Source: Escherichia coli (GTDB lineage Bacteria; Pseudomonadota; Gammaproteobacteria; Enterobacterales; Enterobacteriaceae). Taken from it: a stretch of 64,000 nucleotides of DNA. The stretch lies in the NCBI RefSeq assembly GCF_044324875.1, contig NZ_CP172185.1, one strand, 5' to 3'. Under the pieces are notes generated by a model. The model searched no databases. It saw nothing but the letters and a program-made list of their open reading frames with translations, and was not told where the DNA came from. The position numbers and the translations under genes were made by a program. Position 1 is the first letter of the stretch; the number at the start of each line of letters is the position of its first letter. Positions 12,779 to 30,895 of this stretch are shown piece after piece.

Positions 12779-13278
12779 GATTCGATGATTTTCAGAAACG
12801 GGTTAGTGGTTTTCTTCTGCCCCGCCAGGCCAATCAGACGCTGACGGCTGCTGGGGTCGAGTCCGAGCATTGCCCCCGTGCTGCTCATCTCGGACTCCTG
12901 TTCTTTTTTGGCGGTCAGCTCCGGATTTTTGACCATGCCGCCCATTGCACCGGTGATGGTGTTGCCCTGTCTGGCAATATTTTTCACGGCACGTCGCCAG
13001 AACTCGTAGGCCACGCACCACCGCTCAAGCACCGCGAGGTCAGTCACGCACAGCAGGCCCTGACCGCAGAGTTCTTTAGTTGTCAGTTGCCACATGATCG
13101 TAGCGAGAGGGAGATCTTCTTCAGCGAACCACTCCGGTGGCTCAACACCTTTGATGGGCGTAAAAACAGGTTCATCTTTATTCAGGGCTCGCTTGCCGGG
13201 GTTTCCGGCCAGCGCCTTGCGCGCCGTTGGCTTGGGGCGACGCCCGGAACGCCCCGCCGTTCCAGCCATATGCGGCAC
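12775..13278 (-). CDS. Terminase small subunit (P27 family-like)
   Basis: 167-aa ORF immediately upstream of large terminase. Confidence 0.65.
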
Positions 13279-13394
13279 TCCTGGTTAAATTTCATTTTTC
13301 GCGGGTATAAAAAAACGATGGGGCGGGCAGTCCGGAAGACGTCAGGTCACAGAGATTTGACCCGCCCCTCCCCTCAGACAGTTGAGAGTTATTA
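13279..13394. other. Putative cos / packaging recognition region
   Basis: Inverted repeat GGGGCGGGC...GCCCGCCCC at about 13321-13370 between HNH endonuclease and small terminase. Confidence 0.3.
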
Positions 13395-13745
13395 TCACTT
13401 AAGCCGTTCACGGGCCGTCTTCGCCTTATGGCACGGCCAGCACAGACTCTGCATATTACTGTCGGCATCAGTGCCACCATGTGCTTTAGGGATGATGTGG
13501 TCAACGGTTTTCGCTTCACGCGCCACACCAGCACGCAGACATAACTGACACAGGCCTTTGTCACGTTGCAGCACACGCACACGGATAACATCCCACTTAG
13601 AACCATAACCGCGCTGATGACGGGATTGTCCAGGTTTGTATTGCTTCCAGCCTTCGCTTTTGTGGCTTTCGCAGTAGCCTGAAGGGTCCGTGGTTGTAGA
13701 GCGGCAGCCGCGAACACGGCAGGCTTTTGGGGTTCGTGGGGGCAT
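13395..13745 (-). CDS. HNH endonuclease (packaging-associated)
   Basis: 116-aa ORF, Cys-rich zinc-finger pattern and HNH catalytic core (DHIIPKAHGGTD...CHPCH-like). Confidence 0.85.
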   Translation of the reverse strand: MPPRTPKACRVRGCRSTTTDPSGYCESHKSEGWKQYKPGQSRHQRGYGSKWDVIRVRVLQRDKGLCQLCLRAGVAREAKTVDHIIPKAHGGTDADSNMQSLCWPCHKAKTARERLK

Positions 13746-13876
13746 CCAATCACCTCTTAAATTATTACTATAGTTCTATCTATAACTTCGCAAATAAAAA
13801 TACCGGAGAACTAATCATCAAAAAAGATAATTAGTTCAACCAGCATTAATAATATGGAATATCCAGACAATCTATT

Positions 13877-14332
13877 TCATTTTAAATCTATATATAACAT
13901 TTTCCCTGCAAGCAAGGCCAATTCTGATTTAAAACCCTTTCCGGCCAAGAAAGCCATTTGAAGTTCTCGTAAATTATCCATGGTTTTAGAAATATCATCA
14001 TTTGAGTTAGATGATAGATAAATATTGCACCTAGATTGCAATTCATTAAAGGCTCTGATAATCAACTTTCTATTAACATAACCTTCATCATTTTCTAAAT
14101 TCTTTGGCATAGAAATCAAAGTATTATTATACTCAATGATAGCATCCATCAATTTCAATTTTTTGTCTTCATTATACTGTTTTTTCCATTGCCCTAATGC
14201 GAGAAAACCCACAATCCCTGCGAACAAAGTAACTCCAATACTCGCCAGACTCACAAGAGCAGAAAATTTAGCCCAAAATGCAGCATCTCTGTTAGCTACA
14301 AGAGTTTCATAAGCAATATAAGTAGCGTCCAT
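13877..14332 (-). CDS. Hypothetical single-pass membrane protein (AT-rich cargo)
   Basis: 151-aa ORF with one hydrophobic helix, very AT-rich, in bor-equivalent moron position. Confidence 0.45.
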   Translation of the reverse strand: MDATYIAYETLVANRDAAFWAKFSALVSLASIGVTLFAGIVGFLALGQWKKQYNEDKKLKLMDAIIEYNNTLISMPKNLENDEGYVNRKLIIRAFNELQSRCNIYLSSNSNDDISKTMDNLRELQMAFLAGKGFKSELALLAGKMLYIDLK

Positions 14333-14448
14333 TTACACCTCACTTTATTTTAGAGGTGATTATAGCAAATTACATTCAATCAGGGCTGTACAGTTTTTTA
14401 TCAATTATACTTCGCCATCTCGCTATTATATAACAATATCTTTACATA

Positions 14449-15078
14449 TTGATGGCGTGCCAGCACAATACTGTCACGTACAACCATTCGGATTACTCAG
14501 AGAAAAGTATGATTCAGGATTTACTGATCGAAGCAATTAGTCACGATAGGATGCATAAAAAGTTAAATGAACTGAATTGCTACTTCTACAATCGCAAACA
14601 TGAAACACAAATACGTGATGAGTTAGTTGTTATAATCAATCAAATCAGCACACTAACTGCTTTAAGTGAGCATCCAAAACTCGGTATCGGCGCTGTTGAC
14701 ATATCACTTTATAACCAGTCGATATTGACGCCTGAACATAATGGCAATGTTGCAACCATCGAGATAAAACATCATTACCCAAAAGATTTGCTTTATCGGC
14801 AGGTTCAAGAAGATATCACTTCCGATATTTCAAGAGTAATAGTTTCACCAACTACACACTTTATCCATATAATCCAGCAAAGAACCAGAATTAAAACTCC
14901 TTCTTTTGGTCAAGTGAAATTCCTTGAACGTGATGCAAGTGATATCAGCACTTATGTGCAATATCTTGAGGAGCTAAGTTCATTTCCCAGTAATTTTCAT
15001 AAAAAAAGTGTATGTATTGAGGTAATTGGTGAAATTATGTCGACATATACCTTTAACGTATATTCATTTGACAACTGA
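14449..15078 (+). CDS. Hypothetical protein (AT-rich cargo, opposite to late genes)
   Basis: 209-aa ORF, AT-rich, divergent from 13877-14332; true start may be internal Met near 14509. Confidence 0.45.
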   Translation: MMACQHNTVTYNHSDYSEKSMIQDLLIEAISHDRMHKKLNELNCYFYNRKHETQIRDELVVIINQISTLTALSEHPKLGIGAVDISLYNQSILTPEHNGNVATIEIKHHYPKDLLYRQVQEDITSDISRVIVSPTTHFIHIIQQRTRIKTPSFGQVKFLERDASDISTYVQYLEELSSFPSNFHKKSVCIEVIGEIMSTYTFNVYSFDN

Positions 15079-15099
15079 TTAAACTGTCAATTTTATTGC

Positions 15100-15357
15100 T
15101 TAATGGTTAGTTCTCTCTGAATCTATTTTACGAATGTCAGCTTTATCTCGATTGCAGTTAGCCAGCGCAGACAACAGACTCACATTCAACTCCAGACTAG
15201 CACCATACGTCAGCGGATTAGGTATAAACGGTACAGGAGTATCAGAAGTCAGGCTGGCTGGCAGTGGTGCCACCGGAGCGCTCACGTAAACCGTCCGCGA
15301 ATTTCCGCAACCGGTCAGCAGCGGCAGCAGGCACATGACGTGAAGCACAATCATCAT
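15100..15357 (-). CDS. Rz1: Rz1-type outer-membrane lipoprotein spanin (o-spanin)
   Basis: Lipobox LLTGC and proline-rich tail in alternative frame overlapping 3' end of Rz. Confidence 0.6.
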   Translation of the reverse strand: MMIVLHVMCLLPLLTGCGNSRTVYVSAPVAPLPASLTSDTPVPFIPNPLTYGASLELNVSLLSALANCNRDKADIRKIDSERTNH

Positions 15358-15634
15358 CCGTAACAGCCACTTTGATATCTTCCTGGGTTCTCTGTGACTC
15401 CAGTGCGATCTGCTGTTTTGCATGCTGGTTAGCCTCCAGAACTGTATTGACGATTTGTAGTGATTGCAGGACGTTATTGGTAATGGCAGTTGCTGATTCA
15501 GCATTTCGTACAGCCTCATCAGCACGTTTCTTTTCGTACTGATATTTGCTGTAGTAGTGGTTGGCTGACCAGATGAAAGAACCAATGACAGTAACGAAGA
15601 AAGCAGCGATAACCAGCTTATAGCTCAACTTCAT
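15242..15634 (-). CDS. Rz: Rz-type inner-membrane spanin (i-spanin)
   Basis: 130-aa ORF with N-terminal TM helix and coiled coil, directly after endolysin. Confidence 0.7.
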   Translation of the reverse strand: MKLSYKLVIAAFFVTVIGSFIWSANHYYSKYQYEKKRADEAVRNAESATAITNNVLQSLQIVNTVLEANQHAKQQIALESQRTQEDIKVAVTDDDCASRHVPAAAADRLRKFADGLRERSGGTTASQPDF

Positions 15635-16094
15635 TTACCACCCCACCAGCCTCTTTAAACCGGGCAATCAGGTCACCGATTTTATGTTCATACTGACCGT
15701 AACCAGCACCCGGCAGTGAAGCCCAGATATTGCTGCAACGGTCGATTGCCTGACGGATATCACCGCGATCAATCATCGGTAAAGCGCCACGCTCTTTAAT
15801 CTGCTGCAGAGCTACAGCGTCCTGGCTTTCTGGAGAAAAATCTTTCAGGCCAAGCTGTTTACGGTAAGCATCCCACCAGCGTGAAAGAAGCTGGTAACGT
15901 CCGGCGGCTGTTGATTTGAGTTTGGGGTTTAGCGTGACAAGTTTGCGAGGGTGATCGGAGTAATCAGTGAACAGTTCACCACCAACAATAACATCATAAC
16001 CGTGGTTACGTGTCGGTTGTCGCCCGTTATCCGTTCCTTCTGACCATGCCACCATATCGAGGAAAGCTTTACGCTGGGAATTTAGTACCTGCAT
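15618..16094 (-). CDS. R: Endolysin, lambda R-type lytic transglycosylase
   Basis: 158-aa ORF near-identical over most of its length to recalled lambda R (NQRKAFLDM...AWSEGTDNGRQ...). Confidence 0.9.
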   Translation of the reverse strand: MQVLNSQRKAFLDMVAWSEGTDNGRQPTRNHGYDVIVGGELFTDYSDHPRKLVTLNPKLKSTAAGRYQLLSRWWDAYRKQLGLKDFSPESQDAVALQQIKERGALPMIDRGDIRQAIDRCSNIWASLPGAGYGQYEHKIGDLIARFKEAGGVVNEVEL

Positions 16095-16097
16095 AAA

Positions 16098-16424
16098 TTA
16101 CTCCTTAGAGCCACCAAACTTATTACCGATTACTCTCATTGCAGCCCCACGAATAGCATCGACACCGATCAGCCCCACCCCACCACCAATGGCAACAGAA
16201 AGCGATTTAGGCCATCCGACATACTCAAGAGCGGATGCAAAAGTCAGCGTCAGAGCGCCACAGAGTAGAATTTCGAGTGTTTTTCGCTTCCAGCCACCAC
16301 CACCGCCAAAATAGGCAATGCGCAAGCCAGCCATAACGATCGACATAATCACTGCGCCCAGTGGTGTGTCTCCACGCCACCAGCTCTGGACCAACTCCAG
16401 CCAGGTATTTGGGTTATGAGGCAT
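16098..16424 (-). CDS. S: Holin, lambda S-like class I
   Basis: 108-aa ORF with three hydrophobic segments and charged C-terminus, immediately upstream of R. Confidence 0.75.
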   Translation of the reverse strand: MPHNPNTWLELVQSWWRGDTPLGAVIMSIVMAGLRIAYFGGGGGWKRKTLEILLCGALTLTFASALEYVGWPKSLSVAIGGGVGLIGVDAIRGAAMRVIGNKFGGSKE

Positions 16425-16564
16425 TTGTAGTTATCTCTCACCTCGCCGATACAGGAGGTGCAAATTGAGGGAGTACCACGAACCGCAAACCAGAAGCGGA
16501 AACGTAAAAGAAGCCGAGCCAATGGATAAGTACTAGATAGACCAAGCCCAACGAATACCAAGGC

Positions 16565-16598
16565 CCAGAAATGACAAAACCCGCTCGACGGCGGGTTT
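16565..16598 (-). terminator. Intrinsic terminator upstream of holin (tR'-like)
   Basis: Hairpin AAACCCGC-cgtcga-GCGGGTTT followed by T-rich tract on minus strand. Confidence 0.5.
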
Positions 16599-16755
16599 AA
16601 GCTGTGTGGCAAAGTAACCACTCTTAACACGATATAATACTTTTTGCGTACGCGTTAACTTTTTCTGTAGTATTTAGTGTAAGATTCTTCACAAGATAGA
16701 TACTTTGGAGTACATGATGTAAAGTGCTGTATGCATAAACAGTACAAAGGATATC

Positions 16756-17277
16756 ATGATGAACAAATTAGCACGCTTATTATTAACAGCCAGCTCAATT
16801 GCACCTGTTTGCGCAACTCTATTTTTTATTGGATATGTAAAAGATACGGTTTGGCTGATGCAATATAGCTTATGCGTTGGCATAGCAAGTTGGTTATTAG
16901 CAATAGGCCTGATTCAATATGCTGAGAAACAACTTGAACCTCTGACAAAAAATATTAGTTCAGTTTCTCCCGCTAACAAAGAAGTAACTAATTATTTCTT
17001 AAGCTATTTATTCCCTCTCCTAGGAACAGATTCTATTGCTGAAAATAAAGCATATGCGTTATTCTTTTATTTATCATTGTTATTTTACATCAGCTTTTCC
17101 GAGAACTATAACTTTAACCCAGTATTGTCACTTATCGGTTATAAATTTTACGAAGCTGAAGATGACACCGGCGTAGGTTTTGTATTGATTTCTAAATCAG
17201 TTATTACTGATATTAAAGATATCAAATTTACAGTTATTCAATTAACAGACTACACATTTCTACATGTTAAAGGATAA
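16756..17277 (+). CDS. Multi-pass membrane protein, first gene of AT-rich cargo cassette
   Basis: 173-aa ORF with 3-4 hydrophobic helices, AAGGA ribosome-binding site, opposite strand to flanking late genes. Confidence 0.6.
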   Translation: MMNKLARLLLTASSIAPVCATLFFIGYVKDTVWLMQYSLCVGIASWLLAIGLIQYAEKQLEPLTKNISSVSPANKEVTNYFLSYLFPLLGTDSIAENKAYALFFYLSLLFYISFSENYNFNPVLSLIGYKFYEAEDDTGVGFVLISKSVITDIKDIKFTVIQLTDYTFLHVKG

Positions 17278-17282
17278 TAACC

Positions 17283-18167
17283 ATGGCACTTTTTGCAGTA
17301 ATAGATAATACAATTGCAACGAGAATTGTTAGAGTCGAACTTGATGCAACAGCAAGTACTTCTGTTACGGCCATTTTCCAACAACAGCGTCAATATTTTG
17401 AAAGTCATCATAACAATATGATACCATTCTATGCCGGTTATACACCAAAACATAGTGAGTGTTTTGAAATACAAAACTTTACTGATTCTGCACGCCTGAT
17501 TGACGCAGTCAATAGGCCTACCGCCGTGCCTATCTGGGATCCTAGCCAAATTGATATTGGTTATATTAAAGCATTATTTGTTGGTGTTGACGCGCCAGCA
17601 AACCCCAATATTATTGCACTACAAACTTTCAACAAAAAACAAATCTTAGATACCTCAAAATCATTCTTTGGAAAGCTTTTTGCAAGCAAAACTACCTTTA
17701 GTAAAGCTAATAGCATCGGTTTTAATGTTGATGATAAACTAGTTGCAATAATTATCAATGATACAATACGATTTAAGAGTTTCTTTAATCTAAGAAGCAT
17801 TTTTGACATGTCGTCCTATTTTTCTGCTGCTACTGACCAAGAACTTAATGCATTTAGTCAACTTAGTGTATTTTCTACTCCCCAAGGTTTTGATCTAAAA
17901 TCCGTTGCAGATACAGTGATAAGAAATAAAGTAACACTAATAAATCAGACTGGGATGCTAACACCCCAAAATATGTCAAAGTTTAAATCCGAAGCTGCTA
18001 AAGTTAATTTCCCCTTACAAACCATAATAGTTGGCGGTGTTGAGAAAATTGTCATGCCTTCATCAAAAAAAGAAATAAAAGCCCTTCTTGACTTTCTTGA
18101 GGAAGACATTTGGGTTTCTGGAATAAGTGGAAGACGCTTTAAATCGAATTCAAAGCGCCCAATATAA
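17283..18167 (+). CDS. Hypothetical soluble protein, second gene of cargo cassette
   Basis: 294-aa ORF starting 5 nt after the preceding stop with its own AAAGGA ribosome-binding site; AT-rich. Confidence 0.6.
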   Translation: MALFAVIDNTIATRIVRVELDATASTSVTAIFQQQRQYFESHHNNMIPFYAGYTPKHSECFEIQNFTDSARLIDAVNRPTAVPIWDPSQIDIGYIKALFVGVDAPANPNIIALQTFNKKQILDTSKSFFGKLFASKTTFSKANSIGFNVDDKLVAIIINDTIRFKSFFNLRSIFDMSSYFSAATDQELNAFSQLSVFSTPQGFDLKSVADTVIRNKVTLINQTGMLTPQNMSKFKSEAAKVNFPLQTIIVGGVEKIVMPSSKKEIKALLDFLEEDIWVSGISGRRFKSNSKRPI

Positions 18168-18188
18168 CTAGAAGACAGTTAAGAATAG

Positions 18189-18551
18189 TTAACAGGCAAG
18201 AGTGCAAACAATGCCTTCAATGAAACCAAGCGATGTTTGCAACTCTTTCCTGATAGTCCCATCCGAACACTTTCTCTTCTTAGCAATGGCTCGCAATGAA
18301 ATCCCTACCACAAAATGGGCTATAACTAACTCATACTCTTCTGGTTTGTACTTTCTTAATCTAGCTACGCACCCATCGATCATGAGCCCCTCATCATCAT
18401 CACACTGAATCCGGGACTTTTTGCCATGAGGTAAAAGCCCCTTGAAGCCAGCGGCTACCGGTTGCCAGTCCACTCCGCTATTGTCTGAAGCAGCCCAAGC
18501 TCCCCAACGATCCATCACTTCATACATATCACGCATCAACTTTCTCCACAA
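18189..18551 (-). CDS. Late-gene antiterminator Q (DLP12 QuuD-like); start probably at Met 18533
   Basis: ORF shares the WGAWAA...AAGFKGL...CSDG pattern of the small Q family as recalled. Confidence 0.75.
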   Translation of the reverse strand: MWRKLMRDMYEVMDRWGAWAASDNSGVDWQPVAAGFKGLLPHGKKSRIQCDDDEGLMIDGCVARLRKYKPEEYELVIAHFVVGISLRAIAKKRKCSDGTIRKELQTSLGFIEGIVCTLAC

Positions 18552-18553
18552 AA

Positions 18554-19549
18554 TCAGGCCAGTACGCCAATTGCCAGCGCACGATCGATAAAACGAAATA
18601 TCAGCTCCAGCTGAGAGCCATACTTCTCTTCAAATGCCACGGTATCCGCATGCAGCTCGTCGTGATGCTTTCTGCACAAAGGCAACACAAAGAGGTCATG
18701 CGCTTTTGTACCCATTCCACCCTGACCGTGGCCTATCAGATGGTGGGGATCATCAGCAGGCTTTCCACAACATGCACACGGCTGTGTCTTAACCCAGCGC
18801 GTGTACTTTTCATTAACCCAGCGGCGGCTTTTTGGGCGTAACATAAAAGACTCCGGCGACTCCGGATCCACTTTCAGCGCCAGCACCTTTTTCGCTTTAT
18901 CCAGGATGATGCTGGTGGCAGGAACCGAAGGCACAAGGTCACTTTCCCGGGTGACAGACGGCACAACAGGTTTCGGTAATCTCAGCGCCTTACGGGCTGC
19001 GCTTTCAGGTAAGGCATCCGCCAGGTCATTACGAATCAGCCACCAGCACAGTTCCGGCATTGTCACGGCATGGTTATCATCAGAATCGAGATCCCGACGG
19101 ACTACAGACAACACCCAACGGGCACAGTTATCCGTTGCCATTGATTCCAGCCGCTCCGTGAACTGATCACGTAACTGATTATCGCAGTGCCAGCACAGAC
19201 GGATTGCACCCGGCGCGTGTCGCATTGTGGTCATGTTCTCGCTGTGCCAGTCGGAATGAGGCCACTGGCAGCCTTTTTCACGAAGTAACCAGCTTTCAAG
19301 ACATTCCAACCCACCAGCACGACGAATCACTGCCTCATTACGGAACACGGCCCGAACGGCAGGATCATCCGCCAGCGGTTGTGATGCCGCCGGAACGGCA
19401 CCACTGGCGAAAGATGAATAACGTTCCGGCTCAGGCTCCAGCAGGACACGCCCCTGCATAAACAGGGGCATCAGCTCTGAACCTGGCCTGAACAATACGA
19501 TCCCCATACGCGGGGCAATTTCAGGGGTCAGTAGCGCTCTCACGGTCAC
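18554..19549 (-). CDS. DUF968-family prophage protein
   Basis: 331-aa ORF with C-terminal Cys/His cluster CACCGKP...HHLIGHGQGGMG typical of this prophage family. Confidence 0.6.
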   Translation of the reverse strand: MTVRALLTPEIAPRMGIVLFRPGSELMPLFMQGRVLLEPEPERYSSFASGAVPAASQPLADDPAVRAVFRNEAVIRRAGGLECLESWLLREKGCQWPHSDWHSENMTTMRHAPGAIRLCWHCDNQLRDQFTERLESMATDNCARWVLSVVRRDLDSDDNHAVTMPELCWWLIRNDLADALPESAARKALRLPKPVVPSVTRESDLVPSVPATSIILDKAKKVLALKVDPESPESFMLRPKSRRWVNEKYTRWVKTQPCACCGKPADDPHHLIGHGQGGMGTKAHDLFVLPLCRKHHDELHADTVAFEEKYGSQLELIFRFIDRALAIGVLA

Positions 19550-27767: not shown

Positions 27768-28304
27768 ATGTCATTTATTAAAACTTTTTCCGGGAAGCAT
27801 TTTTATTATGACAAGATAAATCAAGACGACATCGTTATTAACGATATCGCGGTTTCCCTTTCAAATATCTGTCGCTTTGCAGGACATCTTTCACATTTCT
27901 ACAGCGTCGCCCAACATGCGGTGCTTTGCAGCCAACTGGTGCCGCAGGAATTTGCTTTTGAAGCGTTAATGCATGATGCAACAGAAGCGTATTGCCAGGA
28001 CATCCCGGCGCCACTGAAACGCCTTCTTCCTGACTATAAACGGATGGAAGAAAAAATAGACGCCGTAATCCGTGAGAAATACGGGTTACCCCCAGTTATG
28101 AGTACACCCGTGAAATATGCCGATCTCATCATGCTGGCAACTGAACGCCGCGATCTCGGGCTTGATGATGGCTCTTTCTGGCCAGTACTGGAAGGTATCC
28201 CGGCAACAGAGATGTTCAAAGTTATTCCACTGGCACCGGGCCATGCCTACGGGATGTTTATGGAACGCTTCAACGAGTTATCGGAATTACGCAAATGTGC
28301 ATAA
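27768..28304 (+). CDS. HD-domain phosphohydrolase (YfdR-like 5'-deoxynucleotidase)
   Basis: 178-aa product with H..HD metal-binding signature (HAVL...MHDATEAY). Confidence 0.65.
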   Translation: MSFIKTFSGKHFYYDKINQDDIVINDIAVSLSNICRFAGHLSHFYSVAQHAVLCSQLVPQEFAFEALMHDATEAYCQDIPAPLKRLLPDYKRMEEKIDAVIREKYGLPPVMSTPVKYADLIMLATERRDLGLDDGSFWPVLEGIPATEMFKVIPLAPGHAYGMFMERFNELSELRKCA

Positions 28305-29173
28305 CTCATGTAGTTAGTTTTTCTGGCGGGAGAACATCCGCATATCTTGTTCACCTGATGGAAGAACAAAGAAAGGCTGGCAATAACGTCTGCTACATCT
28401 TTATGGATACCGGTTGCGAACATCCGCTGACATACCGCTTTATCCGGGAGGTTGTGAAGTTCTGGGACATACCACTAACTGTGTTACAGGTCGATATAAA
28501 TCCTGAGCTTGGGCAGCCAAATGGTTATACAGAATGGGAGCCAACGGATATTCAGACACGAATGCCGGTGCTTAAACCGTTTATGGACATGGTTAAAAAG
28601 TACGGCACGCCATACATCGGCGGCGCGTTCTGTACTGACAGGCTAAAACTCATCCCTTTCACGAAATACTGCGATAACCATTTCGGGCGAGGTAATTACA
28701 TCACATGGCTGGGTATTCGTGCAGACGAACCCCGTAGGCTGAAACCGAAATCGGGCGTCCGGTATCTTGCCGAGCTGTCAGATTTTGATAAGTCGGATGT
28801 TATCCGGTGGTGGCGAAAACAACCTTTTGATTTGCAAATCCCGGAGCATCTCGGGAACTGTGTTTTCTGCATCAAAAAGTCAACGCAAAAGCTGGGGCTT
28901 GCATGTAAAGACGAACCAGGTCTGATGCGAGTTTTTAATGAGCTGGTTACAGGCAAACACGTCAGGGATGGTCATCGCAGAACAGGTAAAGACATTATGT
29001 ACCGTGGTCACCTGACGCTTGACGGAATTGCCAGAATGTCTGCCAACAGCGACTACAGAAATTTGTATCAGGCGATGGTACAGGCCAGGCGATTCGATAC
29101 CGGCTCGTGTTCAGAGTCATGTGAAATCTGGGGTGATCAATTGGAATTGGAATTCGAAGAGGTAGGGGTATGA
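28295..29173 (+). CDS. PAPS reductase-like PP-loop protein
   Basis: 292-aa ORF with N-terminal SFSGGRTS PP-loop ATP-pyrophosphatase motif. Confidence 0.7.
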   Translation: MCITHVVSFSGGRTSAYLVHLMEEQRKAGNNVCYIFMDTGCEHPLTYRFIREVVKFWDIPLTVLQVDINPELGQPNGYTEWEPTDIQTRMPVLKPFMDMVKKYGTPYIGGAFCTDRLKLIPFTKYCDNHFGRGNYITWLGIRADEPRRLKPKSGVRYLAELSDFDKSDVIRWWRKQPFDLQIPEHLGNCVFCIKKSTQKLGLACKDEPGLMRVFNELVTGKHVRDGHRRTGKDIMYRGHLTLDGIARMSANSDYRNLYQAMVQARRFDTGSCSESCEIWGDQLELEFEEVGV

Positions 29174-29628: not shown

Positions 29629-29847
29629 ATGTACTTGACACTTCAGGAGTGGAACGCTCGCCAGCGACGCCCAAGAAGCCTTGAAACAGTTCGTCGATGG
29701 GTGCGCGAATGCAGGATATTCCCTCCTCCGGTTAAGGATGGAAGAGAGTATCTGTTCCACGAATCAGCGGTAAAGGTTGACTTAAATCGACCAGTAACAG
29801 GTAGCCTTTTGAAGAGGATCAGAAATGGGAAGAAGGCGAAGTCATGA
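29629..29847 (+). CDS. xis: Excisionase Xis (lambda)
   Basis: 72-aa product MYLTLQEWNARQRRPRSLETVRRW... matches lambda Xis as recalled. Confidence 0.9.
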   Translation: MYLTLQEWNARQRRPRSLETVRRWVRECRIFPPPVKDGREYLFHESAVKVDLNRPVTGSLLKRIRNGKKAKS

Positions 29848-30895
29848 GCGCCGGGATTTACCCCCTAACCTTTATATAAGAAACAATGGATATTACTGCT
29901 ACAGGGACCCAAGGACGGGTAAAGAGTTCGGATTAGGCAGAGACAGGAGGATAGCAATTACTGAAGCAATACAGGCAAACATTGAGTTATTTTCAGGACA
30001 CAAACACAAGCCTCTGACAGCGAGAATCAACAGTGATAATTCTGTTACGTTACATTCATGGCTTGATCGCTACGAAAAAATCCTCGCCAGCAGAGGAATC
30101 AAGCAGAAGACACTTATAAATTACATGAGCAAAATTAAAGCAATAAGGAGGGGGCTACCTGATGTTCCACTTGAAGACATCACCACAAAAGAAATTGCAG
30201 CAATGCTCAATGGATACATAGACGAGGGCAAGGCGGCGTCAGCCAAGTTAATCAGATCAACACTGAGCGATGCATTCCGAGAGGCAATAGCTGAAGGCCA
30301 TATAACAACAAACCCGGTCGCTGCCACTCGCGCAGCAAAATCAGAGGTAAGGAGATCAAGACTTACGGCTGACGAATACCTGAAAATTTATCAAGCAGCA
30401 GAATCATCACCATGTTGGCTTAGACTTGCAATGGAACTGGCTGTTGTTACCGGGCAGCGAGTTGGTGATTTATGCGAAATGAAGTGGTCTGATATCGTAG
30501 ATGGATATCTTTATGTCGAGCAAAGCAAAACAGGCGTAAAAATTGCCATCCCAACAGCATTGCATGTTGATGCTCTCGGAATATCAATGAAGGAAACACT
30601 TGATAAATGCAAAGAGATTCTTGGCGGAGAAACCATAATTGCATCTACTCGTCGCGAACCGCTTTCATCCGGCACAGTATCAAGGTATTTTATGCGCGCA
30701 CGAAAAGCATCAGGTCTTTCCTTCGAAGGGGATCCGCCTACCTTTCACGAGTTGCGCAGTTTGTCTGCAAGACTCTATGAGAAGCAGATAAGCGATAAGT
30801 TTGCTCAACATCTTCTCGGGCATAAGTCGGACACCATGGCATCACAGTATCGTGATGACAGAGGCAGGGAGTGGGACAAAATTGAAATCAAATAA
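29825..30895 (+). CDS. int: Integrase Int (lambda, tyrosine recombinase)
   Basis: 356-aa product MGRRRSHERRDLPPNLYIRNNGYYCYRDPRTGKEF... matches lambda Int as recalled. Confidence 0.95.
   Translation: MGRRRSHERRDLPPNLYIRNNGYYCYRDPRTGKEFGLGRDRRIAITEAIQANIELFSGHKHKPLTARINSDNSVTLHSWLDRYEKILASRGIKQKTLINYMSKIKAIRRGLPDVPLEDITTKEIAAMLNGYIDEGKAASAKLIRSTLSDAFREAIAEGHITTNPVAATRAAKSEVRRSRLTADEYLKIYQAAESSPCWLRLAMELAVVTGQRVGDLCEMKWSDIVDGYLYVEQSKTGVKIAIPTALHVDALGISMKETLDKCKEILGGETIIASTRREPLSSGTVSRYFMRARKASGLSFEGDPPTFHELRSLSARLYEKQISDKFAQHLLGHKSDTMASQYRDDRGREWDKIEIK

Follow-up and report, generated by a model that had tools for sequence, protein, structure and literature searches.

A Kiwa anti-phage cassette between Q and the lysis genes of an Escherichia coli prophage, with a conserved putative LexA operator over its predicted promoter

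Kiwa is a two-gene anti-phage system whose structurally studied representatives, of the O55:H7 RM12579/ECOR49 type (PDB entries 9mrx, 9mrg, 9mrr, 9mtn and 9nyu), form a membrane supercomplex of KwaA tetramers and KwaB dimers (PMC11785009). KwaA is an inner-membrane protein with four transmembrane (TM) helices and a cytoplasmic β-barrel built from intracellular loop 1 and the C-terminus; the complex senses membrane disturbance where a phage attaches or conjugation occurs, whereupon KwaB binds the entering DNA non-specifically via its DUF4868 domain, so that replication and, as a consequence, late transcription come to a halt in the absence of abortive infection (PMC11785009). KwaB is inhibited by phage lambda's Gam protein, for which RecBCD competes, and approximately one in six dereplicated Kiwa loci is located in a prophage (PMC11785009). 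Here, we describe a two-gene cassette (positions 16756-18167) found in a 64,000-nt stretch of an Escherichia coli genome (contig NZ_CP172185.1; hereinafter, the window), where it resides in a prophage between the antiterminator gene Q and the lysis genes (Table 1). We consider it highly probable that these two genes constitute a Kiwa system against phages and form a moron with its own transcription, from a promoter that is most likely held by LexA.

The initial annotation of the window had drawn attention to two tightly linked genes with strong ribosome-binding sites (RBS), encoding a 173-aa protein with three to four hydrophobic helices and, 5 nt downstream, a soluble 294-aa partner, and had likened the pair to KwaA/KwaB while allowing that it could equally be a different or undescribed system. 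The list of open reading frames (ORFs) agrees with the proposed layout: both genes are on the plus strand, kwaA is upstream, the gap is 5 nt and AAAGGA precedes each gene; the kwaA-kwaB order is kept in all related loci compared. Profile hidden Markov model (HMM) searches identified the family. KwaA is matched over residues 1-172 of 173 by the PADLOC KwaA model PDLC00216 (E = 1.9e-83) as well as by 11 further KwaA models, and KwaB over its full length (residues 1-294) by PDLC00225 (E = 2.3e-150) as well as by further KwaB models, these further matches being weaker; no non-Kiwa defence family in PADLOC matched either protein. Furthermore, KwaB contains the Pfam domain PF16162 (KwaB/DUF4868), residues 108-281 aligning with model positions 16-185 of 186 at E = 2.1e-7, homologues of KwaA carry the precomputed Pfam assignment PF28043 (KwaA), and PF28043 adjoins PF16162 in the homologous loci. 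The system itself is already known and is annotated as such at the identical locus, where RefSeq names the product of kwaB 'Kiwa anti-phage protein KwaB-like domain-containing protein' and newer RefSeq annotations call the small protein a 'KwaA family protein', so that the locus as originally flagged adds little.

The predicted structures point in the same direction. The hydropathy profile of KwaA has two strong and two weaker, aromatic-rich hydrophobic segments, and its AlphaFold2 (AF2) model (predicted local distance difference test score, pLDDT, 78.6) contains four TM helices (residues 2-28, 32-59, 76-96 and 98-114), with β-strands in the TM2-TM3 loop (62-72) and near the C-terminus (130-136, 141-146, 157-162 and 167-170). 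In this model, the loop and the C-terminus together build a cytoplasmic β-rich domain, as published for KwaA (PMC11785009). A Foldseek search of the PDB with the KwaA model returned KwaA chains as all of the top seven matches (9mrx_A, 9mrg and 9mrr; probability 1.0, template modelling scores (TM-scores) 0.56-0.69, 18% identity), the next match having E = 0.7. KwaB has no hydrophobic segment, and the only PDB matches to its model at E ≤ 1e-3 are the KwaB chains 9mrx_D, 9mtn_B/K and 9nyu_A (E = 4e-6 to 1e-4, approximately 300 columns, TM-scores 0.47-0.50, 11-12% identity). Its predicted two-domain organization, with an N-terminal Rossmann-like domain and a C-terminal DUF4868 domain, agrees with these chains at the fold level only, the TM-score being moderate. 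The predicted isoelectric point (pI) of KwaB, 9.2, fits DNA binding and is the only supportive feature in this respect. The residue numbers published for the studied proteins (for KwaB, e.g. R142, R167, K187 and R233) do not correspond to this KwaB or KwaA.

Judged by these profile and model comparisons, the cassette belongs to Kiwa by both family and fold, and represents a clade far from the structurally studied one. It shares with the O55:H7-type systems the two-gene kwaA-kwaB operon, a KwaA with four TM helices and a cytoplasmic β domain contributed by the TM2-TM3 loop and the C-terminus, a KwaB with an N-terminal α/β domain followed by DUF4868, and frequent carriage by prophages or other mobile elements. 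It differs in that its proteins are shorter (172/173 and 294 aa vs approximately 195 and 315 aa); a putative LexA operator covers its predicted promoter, and PMC11785009 mentions neither LexA nor the SOS response. Further counterparts are other enterobacterial lineages of 'short' Kiwa (PADLOC KwaB models PDLC00222/PDLC00234 and KwaA model PDLC00221), such as those with a 297-aa KwaB in E. coli (cluster P0329) and a 289-aa KwaB in Salmonella and Klebsiella (cluster P0344), which have the same protein lengths, gene order and PF28043-PF16162 pairing, and in which a LexA box likewise lies directly ahead of kwaA; their KwaB proteins are, however, only 35-39% identical to that of the cassette, and the loci sit in an element resembling integrative and conjugative elements (ICE-like) or in integrase islands rather than between Q and holin. 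Another prophage-encoded two-gene exclusion module is RexA/RexB of phage lambda (PMC11077077). It has no sequence or fold kinship to the cassette, and no Rex model in PADLOC matched. In the classical model, Rex depolarizes the membrane and causes abortive infection; for Kiwa, by contrast, it is reported that the cell is not killed. Moreover, RexA/RexB is expressed with cI and not under LexA.

The clade is large. With a KwaB profile, 1,037 sequences, each standing for a cluster at 50% identity, are retrieved at E ≤ 1e-3; among the best 150 of these, almost all are 285-300 aa long. The cassette itself is present at at least 99% identity in 32 of 5,426 complete E. coli genomes, and a 2.2-kb stretch is 100% identical in the E. 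coli strains H1827/12 and GPEC1035. Both ORFs are real genes under strong purifying selection, with ratios of nonsynonymous to synonymous substitution rates (dN/dS) of 0.025 for kwaA and 0.10 for kwaB in comparison with the Citrobacter orthologues. KwaA is more conserved than KwaB in every pair of orthologues compared with those of the window (97/82, 83/76, 77/62 and 72/50% aa identity for loci L004, L007, L010 and L013, respectively); the effector thus evolves faster than the membrane sensor, which would fit pressure by phage inhibitors such as Gam. The second ATG of kwaA (16759), giving a 172-aa protein, is likely the true start, because it leaves a 7-nt spacing to the RBS and most homologues have 172 aa and start with MNKLARLL.

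The one feature that we did not find reported is a conserved putative LexA operator over the predicted kwaAB promoter; no publication linking Kiwa or DUF4868 with LexA or SOS was found in the searchable literature. Alignment of the kwaA upstream regions from five genera revealed a single conserved block, the palindrome TACTGT-N8-ACAGTA located just ahead of the RBS, which we take to be the gammaproteobacterial LexA (SOS) box. The copy in the window, TGCTGTATGCATAAACAGTA, equals the consensus TACTGTATATATATACAGTA at 16 of 20 positions and is the sole CTGT-N8-ACAG within the window. Among the loci with enough upstream sequence to evaluate (n = 72), the box lies 11-31 nt ahead of kwaA in 70, representing 35 distinct sequence contexts; 15-18 of its 20 positions agree with the consensus, and the information content is 2 bits at CTGT and CAG but close to 0 in the flanking positions. 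Across Enterobacterales, boxed loci are found in prophages, in an ICE-like element and in genomic islands, and their flanking DNA is unalignable. The box is kept even where KwaB is only 35-39% identical, as in the E. coli 297-aa type, the Salmonella/Klebsiella 289-aa type and Photorhabdus; Avibacterium has a near-consensus version (CTGT-N8-TCAG), and in a metagenomic lineage the box is present with the kwaA gene call over-extended across it. Since a relaxed version of the pattern occurs elsewhere in these loci only about once per 6-8 kb, the constant position of the box in 35 contexts is not a matter of chance. Both boxless loci among the 72 come from a 29%-GC organism; the other exceptions are truncated contigs and a viral contig (L034) from which the left half-site has been removed.

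Three of these loci show peculiarities of their own. L034 (IMGVR_UViG_2811995320_000003) is the only locus in which, at approximately positions 60-105, unrelated sequence stands in place of the promoter and of the left half-site (…GGGGAAGACC|CACAAATAAACAGTG), which may reflect a natural promoter-deletion variant, a rearrangement or an assembly breakpoint. The KwaA calls of L083 (3001-3573, 190 aa) and L081 (3001-3639, 212 aa) begin too far 5′ and thereby take in the LexA box and RBS; in both, the true start codon is an internal ATG after GGAGG.

The position of the box relative to the predicted kwaAB promoter suggests how it might act. In the window, the predicted -10 element shares the first base of the box; across the loci, 30 of the 35 contexts have a -10-like TAnnnT that overlaps the box at its left arm, and many have, 16-18 nt upstream, a T(G/A)GATA-like -35. 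The promoter proposal is based on this cross-locus alignment. LexA covering the -10 and the start site is the classical geometry of repression. The same arrangement, a 20-bp TACTGT-N8-ACAGTA over the -10/start of a mobile and potentially costly function, is seen in LexA-controlled accessory operons of mobile elements, such as colicin and umuDC-type operons, from which the cassette differs in that its cargo is an anti-phage system. Because the operator overlaps the promoter and travels with the cassette, kwaAB is most likely held low by LexA and de-repressed during the SOS response, and we infer from the alignments that the kwaAB promoter is LexA-repressed and SOS-inducible throughout this Kiwa clade. 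The operator is thus well supported as a conserved sequence feature, and its regulatory role is predicted.

Under this scheme, LexA bound at the -10/start would keep the DNA-clamping KwaB low in an undamaged cell, and release of LexA upon DNA damage would raise kwaAB expression just before a wave of temperate phage. Speculatively, tight basal repression would limit the cost of the system, because KwaB clamps DNA and stalls forks, and de-repression would strengthen defence at a time when phages are about to be released, because SOS induces temperate phages population-wide. By analogy with the characterized systems, KwaA would form a homotetramer in the inner membrane, each subunit with four TM helices, with KwaB dimers docked on the cytoplasmic β-barrel, and the complex would be activated by membrane disturbance at the site of phage or conjugative-pilus attachment. 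Protection against phages and a reduction of conjugation, for which Kiwa requires both genes, would likewise follow from homology to characterized Kiwa. No Gam was found among the early-left genes of the prophage in a PHROGs comparison.

In prophage-borne copies, the lytic cycle could silence Kiwa again as a second layer of control. The stop codons of the convergent kwaB and Q genes are 21 nt apart, and it can be speculated that, for this reason, rightward transcription through Q runs antisense into kwaB. In addition, one of the prophage genes specifies a protein of 108 aa that is nothing but a LexA DNA-binding domain and lacks the S24 self-cleavage domain (Table 1); being uncleavable, it could re-occupy SOS boxes during lytic growth, after LexA has been destroyed. 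Relatives of this protein (41-100% identity) are encoded in approximately half of the Kiwa-carrying phage loci, and it is therefore not obligatorily linked to Kiwa. On balance, we favour, with some reservation, the view that this gammaproteobacterial Kiwa clade is wired into the SOS response through LexA at the kwaAB -10/start, the prophage copies possibly being re-silenced by the LexA-domain-only protein together with Q antisense transcription.

Several observations weigh against parts of this picture. KwaA scores only 46 bits (E = 5e-12, residues 34-161) against the NCBIfam KwaA equivalog of the O55:H7 type, NF041622, with a cut-off of 100, so that it is related to this curated group by sequence but is not a member of it. 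Identity to the solved chains is low (12% for KwaB and 18% for KwaA), and neither phmmer searches with each protein nor profile searches built from 41-47 relatives found a PDB chain at the sequence level; with no sequence alignment to the solved chains, the residues described for the interface and for DNA contact cannot be mapped. The AF2 model of KwaB has three disordered stretches of low confidence, and its overall quality is moderate (pLDDT 76.5). Experimentally tested Kiwa operons are those of ECOR8, ECOR12, ECOR49, D9, Ralstonia and O55:H7; 70 E. coli genomes match the cassette, and the 60 of them that are listed include no ECOR strain. With respect to regulation, the predicted kwaAB promoter is absent from the list produced by a generic promoter scan, which found only sub-threshold or chance-level sites (6 found vs 7.5 expected), and a preprint, in which Kiwa is unmentioned, reports that expression of E. 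coli defence systems on the whole is negatively correlated with recA expression. Complex formation, DNA binding, protection and LexA binding are all, in the case of this cassette, properties that we infer.

How these points affect the assignment depends on the alternative considered. That the pair might be a different, undescribed membrane-plus-partner system, or else an accessory to phage lysis or structure, could draw on the low identity to the solved Kiwa proteins, on the equivalog score below its cut-off and on PHROGs, in which both proteins fall into families of 'unknown function' (KwaB in phrog_15620, E = 1e-182). We nevertheless reject both versions, and regard this possibility as very improbable, on account of the full-length Kiwa HMM matches with very strong E-values and no other PADLOC family, the Pfam KwaB domain in the 294-aa protein, the predicted folds that significantly match only Kiwa chains in the PDB, and the occurrence of the cassette without phage genes nearby. 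The reservation of the initial annotation in favour of an undescribed system can accordingly be dropped.

With the identity of the system accepted, two questions concern the palindrome and its beneficiary. It is conceivable, albeit improbable in our estimation, that the palindrome is not a working LexA operator, being instead read by another regulator, such as the LexA-domain-only protein of the phage, or representing a promoter or untranslated-region element with a chance resemblance to an SOS box: LexA binding at the box is predicted, the copy in the window has four mismatches to the 20-nt consensus, and the 108-aa protein is encoded in the same prophage, with relatives in about half of the phage loci. 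However, the box is also kept in loci that lack a phage LexA-like gene, non-phage contexts included; its conservation is confined to the positions read by LexA (CTGT, ACAG and the TA-rich flanks and centre), whereas the surroundings diverge; and its recurrence in 35 independent contexts exceeds what the frequency of the relaxed pattern would produce by chance. The operator of the E. coli lexA gene itself also begins with TGCTGT. A somewhat less remote, although still unlikely, scenario is that the cassette is Kiwa by descent but serves the phage, as a superinfection exclusion device raised together with prophage induction, when LexA and the prophage repressor are cleaved together, and excluding competitors and plasmids. 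The LexA box implies a rise of expression exactly when SOS-inducible prophages are induced, the repressor of this prophage is of the LexA/S24 type (cI-like), and the fact that kwaB and Q remain neighbours in almost every viral locus, including those with a KwaB of only 45-60% identity, suggests long co-evolution with the phage lineage. Yet boxed cassettes also reside in an ICE-like element and in integrase islands, which indicates that the box is not a phage-specific adaptation, and lytic transcription of Q antisense into kwaB should oppose kwaAB expression. It should be noted that this scenario differs from control of an anti-phage Kiwa by LexA, the explanation we prefer, in the beneficiary and not in the mechanism.

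The prophage that carries the cassette combines lambdoid regulatory, replication and Q modules with a contractile-tail late region. The initial annotation had described the cassette as an AT-rich insertion, antisense to the flanking late genes, in the interval between Q and holin where lambdoid phages carry morons. The composition bears this out: the GC content of the cassette is 0.34 compared to 0.505 for the window, and GC at third codon positions (GC3) is 0.25-0.26 compared to 0.43-0.49 in Q, holin and lysozyme. So does the orientation, with Q, holin, lysozyme and the Rz-like gene all on the minus strand, although one further plus-strand ORF is present in a second AT-rich island at 13.8-15.1 kb (see below). 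As to the location, the cassette does abut Q, whereas on the other side it is separated from holin by a conserved non-coding element. No plus-strand terminator was detected 3′ of kwaB in a terminator scan.

Table 1 Annotated features of the Kiwa cassette and its prophage surroundings (positions in the window)
Feature	Position	Strand	Remarks
151-aa protein	13877-14332	-	N-terminal hydrophobic segment; second AT-rich island
209-aa protein	14449-15078	+	Second AT-rich island
Rz-like spanin	15242-15634	-	RefSeq naming
Lysozyme, GH104	15618-16094	-	RefSeq naming
Holin, lambda family	16098-16424	-	First lysis gene; RefSeq naming
Conserved non-coding element	16576-16657	-	76-82 nt; bounds the cargo slot on the holin side
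Predicted kwaAB promoter	16697-16725	+	-35 TAGATA 16697-16702, 17-nt spacer, -10 TAAAGT 16720-16725; predicted from sequence only
Putative LexA (SOS) box	16725-16744	+	TGCTGTATGCATAAACAGTA; ends 11 nt before the first kwaA ATG (16756)
kwaA RBS	16746-16751	+	AAAGGA; Shine-Dalgarno-like sequence
kwaA	16756-17277	+	ORF, 173 aa; Kiwa membrane component
kwaB RBS	17269-17274	+	AAAGGA; within the kwaA 3′ end, 8 nt ahead of the kwaB ATG
kwaB	17283-18167	+	ORF, 294 aa; Kiwa soluble effector, DUF4868 domain
Antiterminator Q (PF06530 type)	18189-18551	-	RefSeq naming of the identical locus
LexA DNA-binding-domain-only protein, 108 aa	20754-21080	-	Pfam PF01726, E = 2.2e-18; nin-like region upstream of Q
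Integrase	29825-30892		Prophage

The non-coding element contains a minus-strand terminator-like hairpin (16598-16577), is 89-94% identical in phages Stx2_14040 and vB_EcoS-569R4, and is found ahead of the late genes in three phages that differ in other respects. A search of Rfam with region 13000-19500 gave only chance miRNA-like matches, and no known RNA accounts for the element, which may be part of the late-operon leader; no convincing minus-strand -35/-10 pair of a Q-dependent late promoter was seen near the Q stop or in the element. In Stx2_14040, the element sits 16 nt from the Q stop, and the slot is thus empty. In vB_EcoS-569R4 (ON470598.1; locus L003, 1708-3103), the slot is filled by a different antisense pair of genes, encoding 286 and 182 aa, with overlapping ends and a GC content of 0.31, for which neither a PADLOC match nor a LexA box was found and which is a candidate for an uncharacterized defence or exclusion module.

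Comparison of the wider set of loci supports the view that cargo is exchanged at the Q-to-lysis slot in this lineage of phages, in keeping with the hotspot reading of the initial annotation. The cassette occupies the Q-to-holin slot of Citrobacter and Klebsiella prophages with differing holins and lysozymes, and in Proteus prophages it sits in the slot beside a different type of antiterminator. In IMG/VR, a Q homologue (65-100% aa identity) follows kwaB in convergent orientation in nearly all of the 54 viral contigs, even at 45-60% KwaB identity. Cassettes outside the slot were found in a Salmonella integrase/methylase island, an E. coli ICE-like element, a HipA/integrase island and at the tail end of a Photorhabdus prophage. 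In E. coli ES8 (NZ_CM184330.1) and ES10 (NZ_CM184320.1), transposase genes of the insertion sequences (IS) IS150 and ISKox3 are annotated inside the Q-Kiwa-holin stretch; the slot region is therefore also an IS target.

A second AT-rich island, with a GC content of 0.30-0.37, occupies positions 13746-15142 and is flanked by the Rz-like gene on one side and the HNH/terminase genes on the other. Neither the 151-aa nor the 209-aa protein encoded there has a PADLOC or Pfam match, and PHROGs places both in families of 'unknown function' (phrog_6169 and phrog_12494). Strain H1827/12 has a different, 168-aa gene in place of the island, and the 151-aa gene has no megablast match in any complete E. coli genome, which suggests that the island is a second variable moron slot. 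At the end of the prophage, a gene similar to those for phosphoadenosine-phosphosulfate reductase (28295-29173, plus strand; phrog_424, E = 9.5e-91) adjoins the excisionase and integrase genes as a further accessory gene.

Taken alone, the locus as flagged is a routine match to a known defence system and adds little. Its clade is, however, very distant in sequence from the solved Kiwa, so that nature itself offers a means of testing the generality of the 'membrane sensor plus DNA clamp' model. The slot of the sister phage, with its uncharacterized antisense two-gene cassette, is a reasonable place to seek new defence genes. Finally, the LexA operator suggests that DNA damage and the induction of prophages govern when this defence system is expressed, which, if true, would be a concrete case of regulated immunity; laboratory assays of Kiwa operons under their native promoters could then underestimate the strength of the system when performed without SOS induction.

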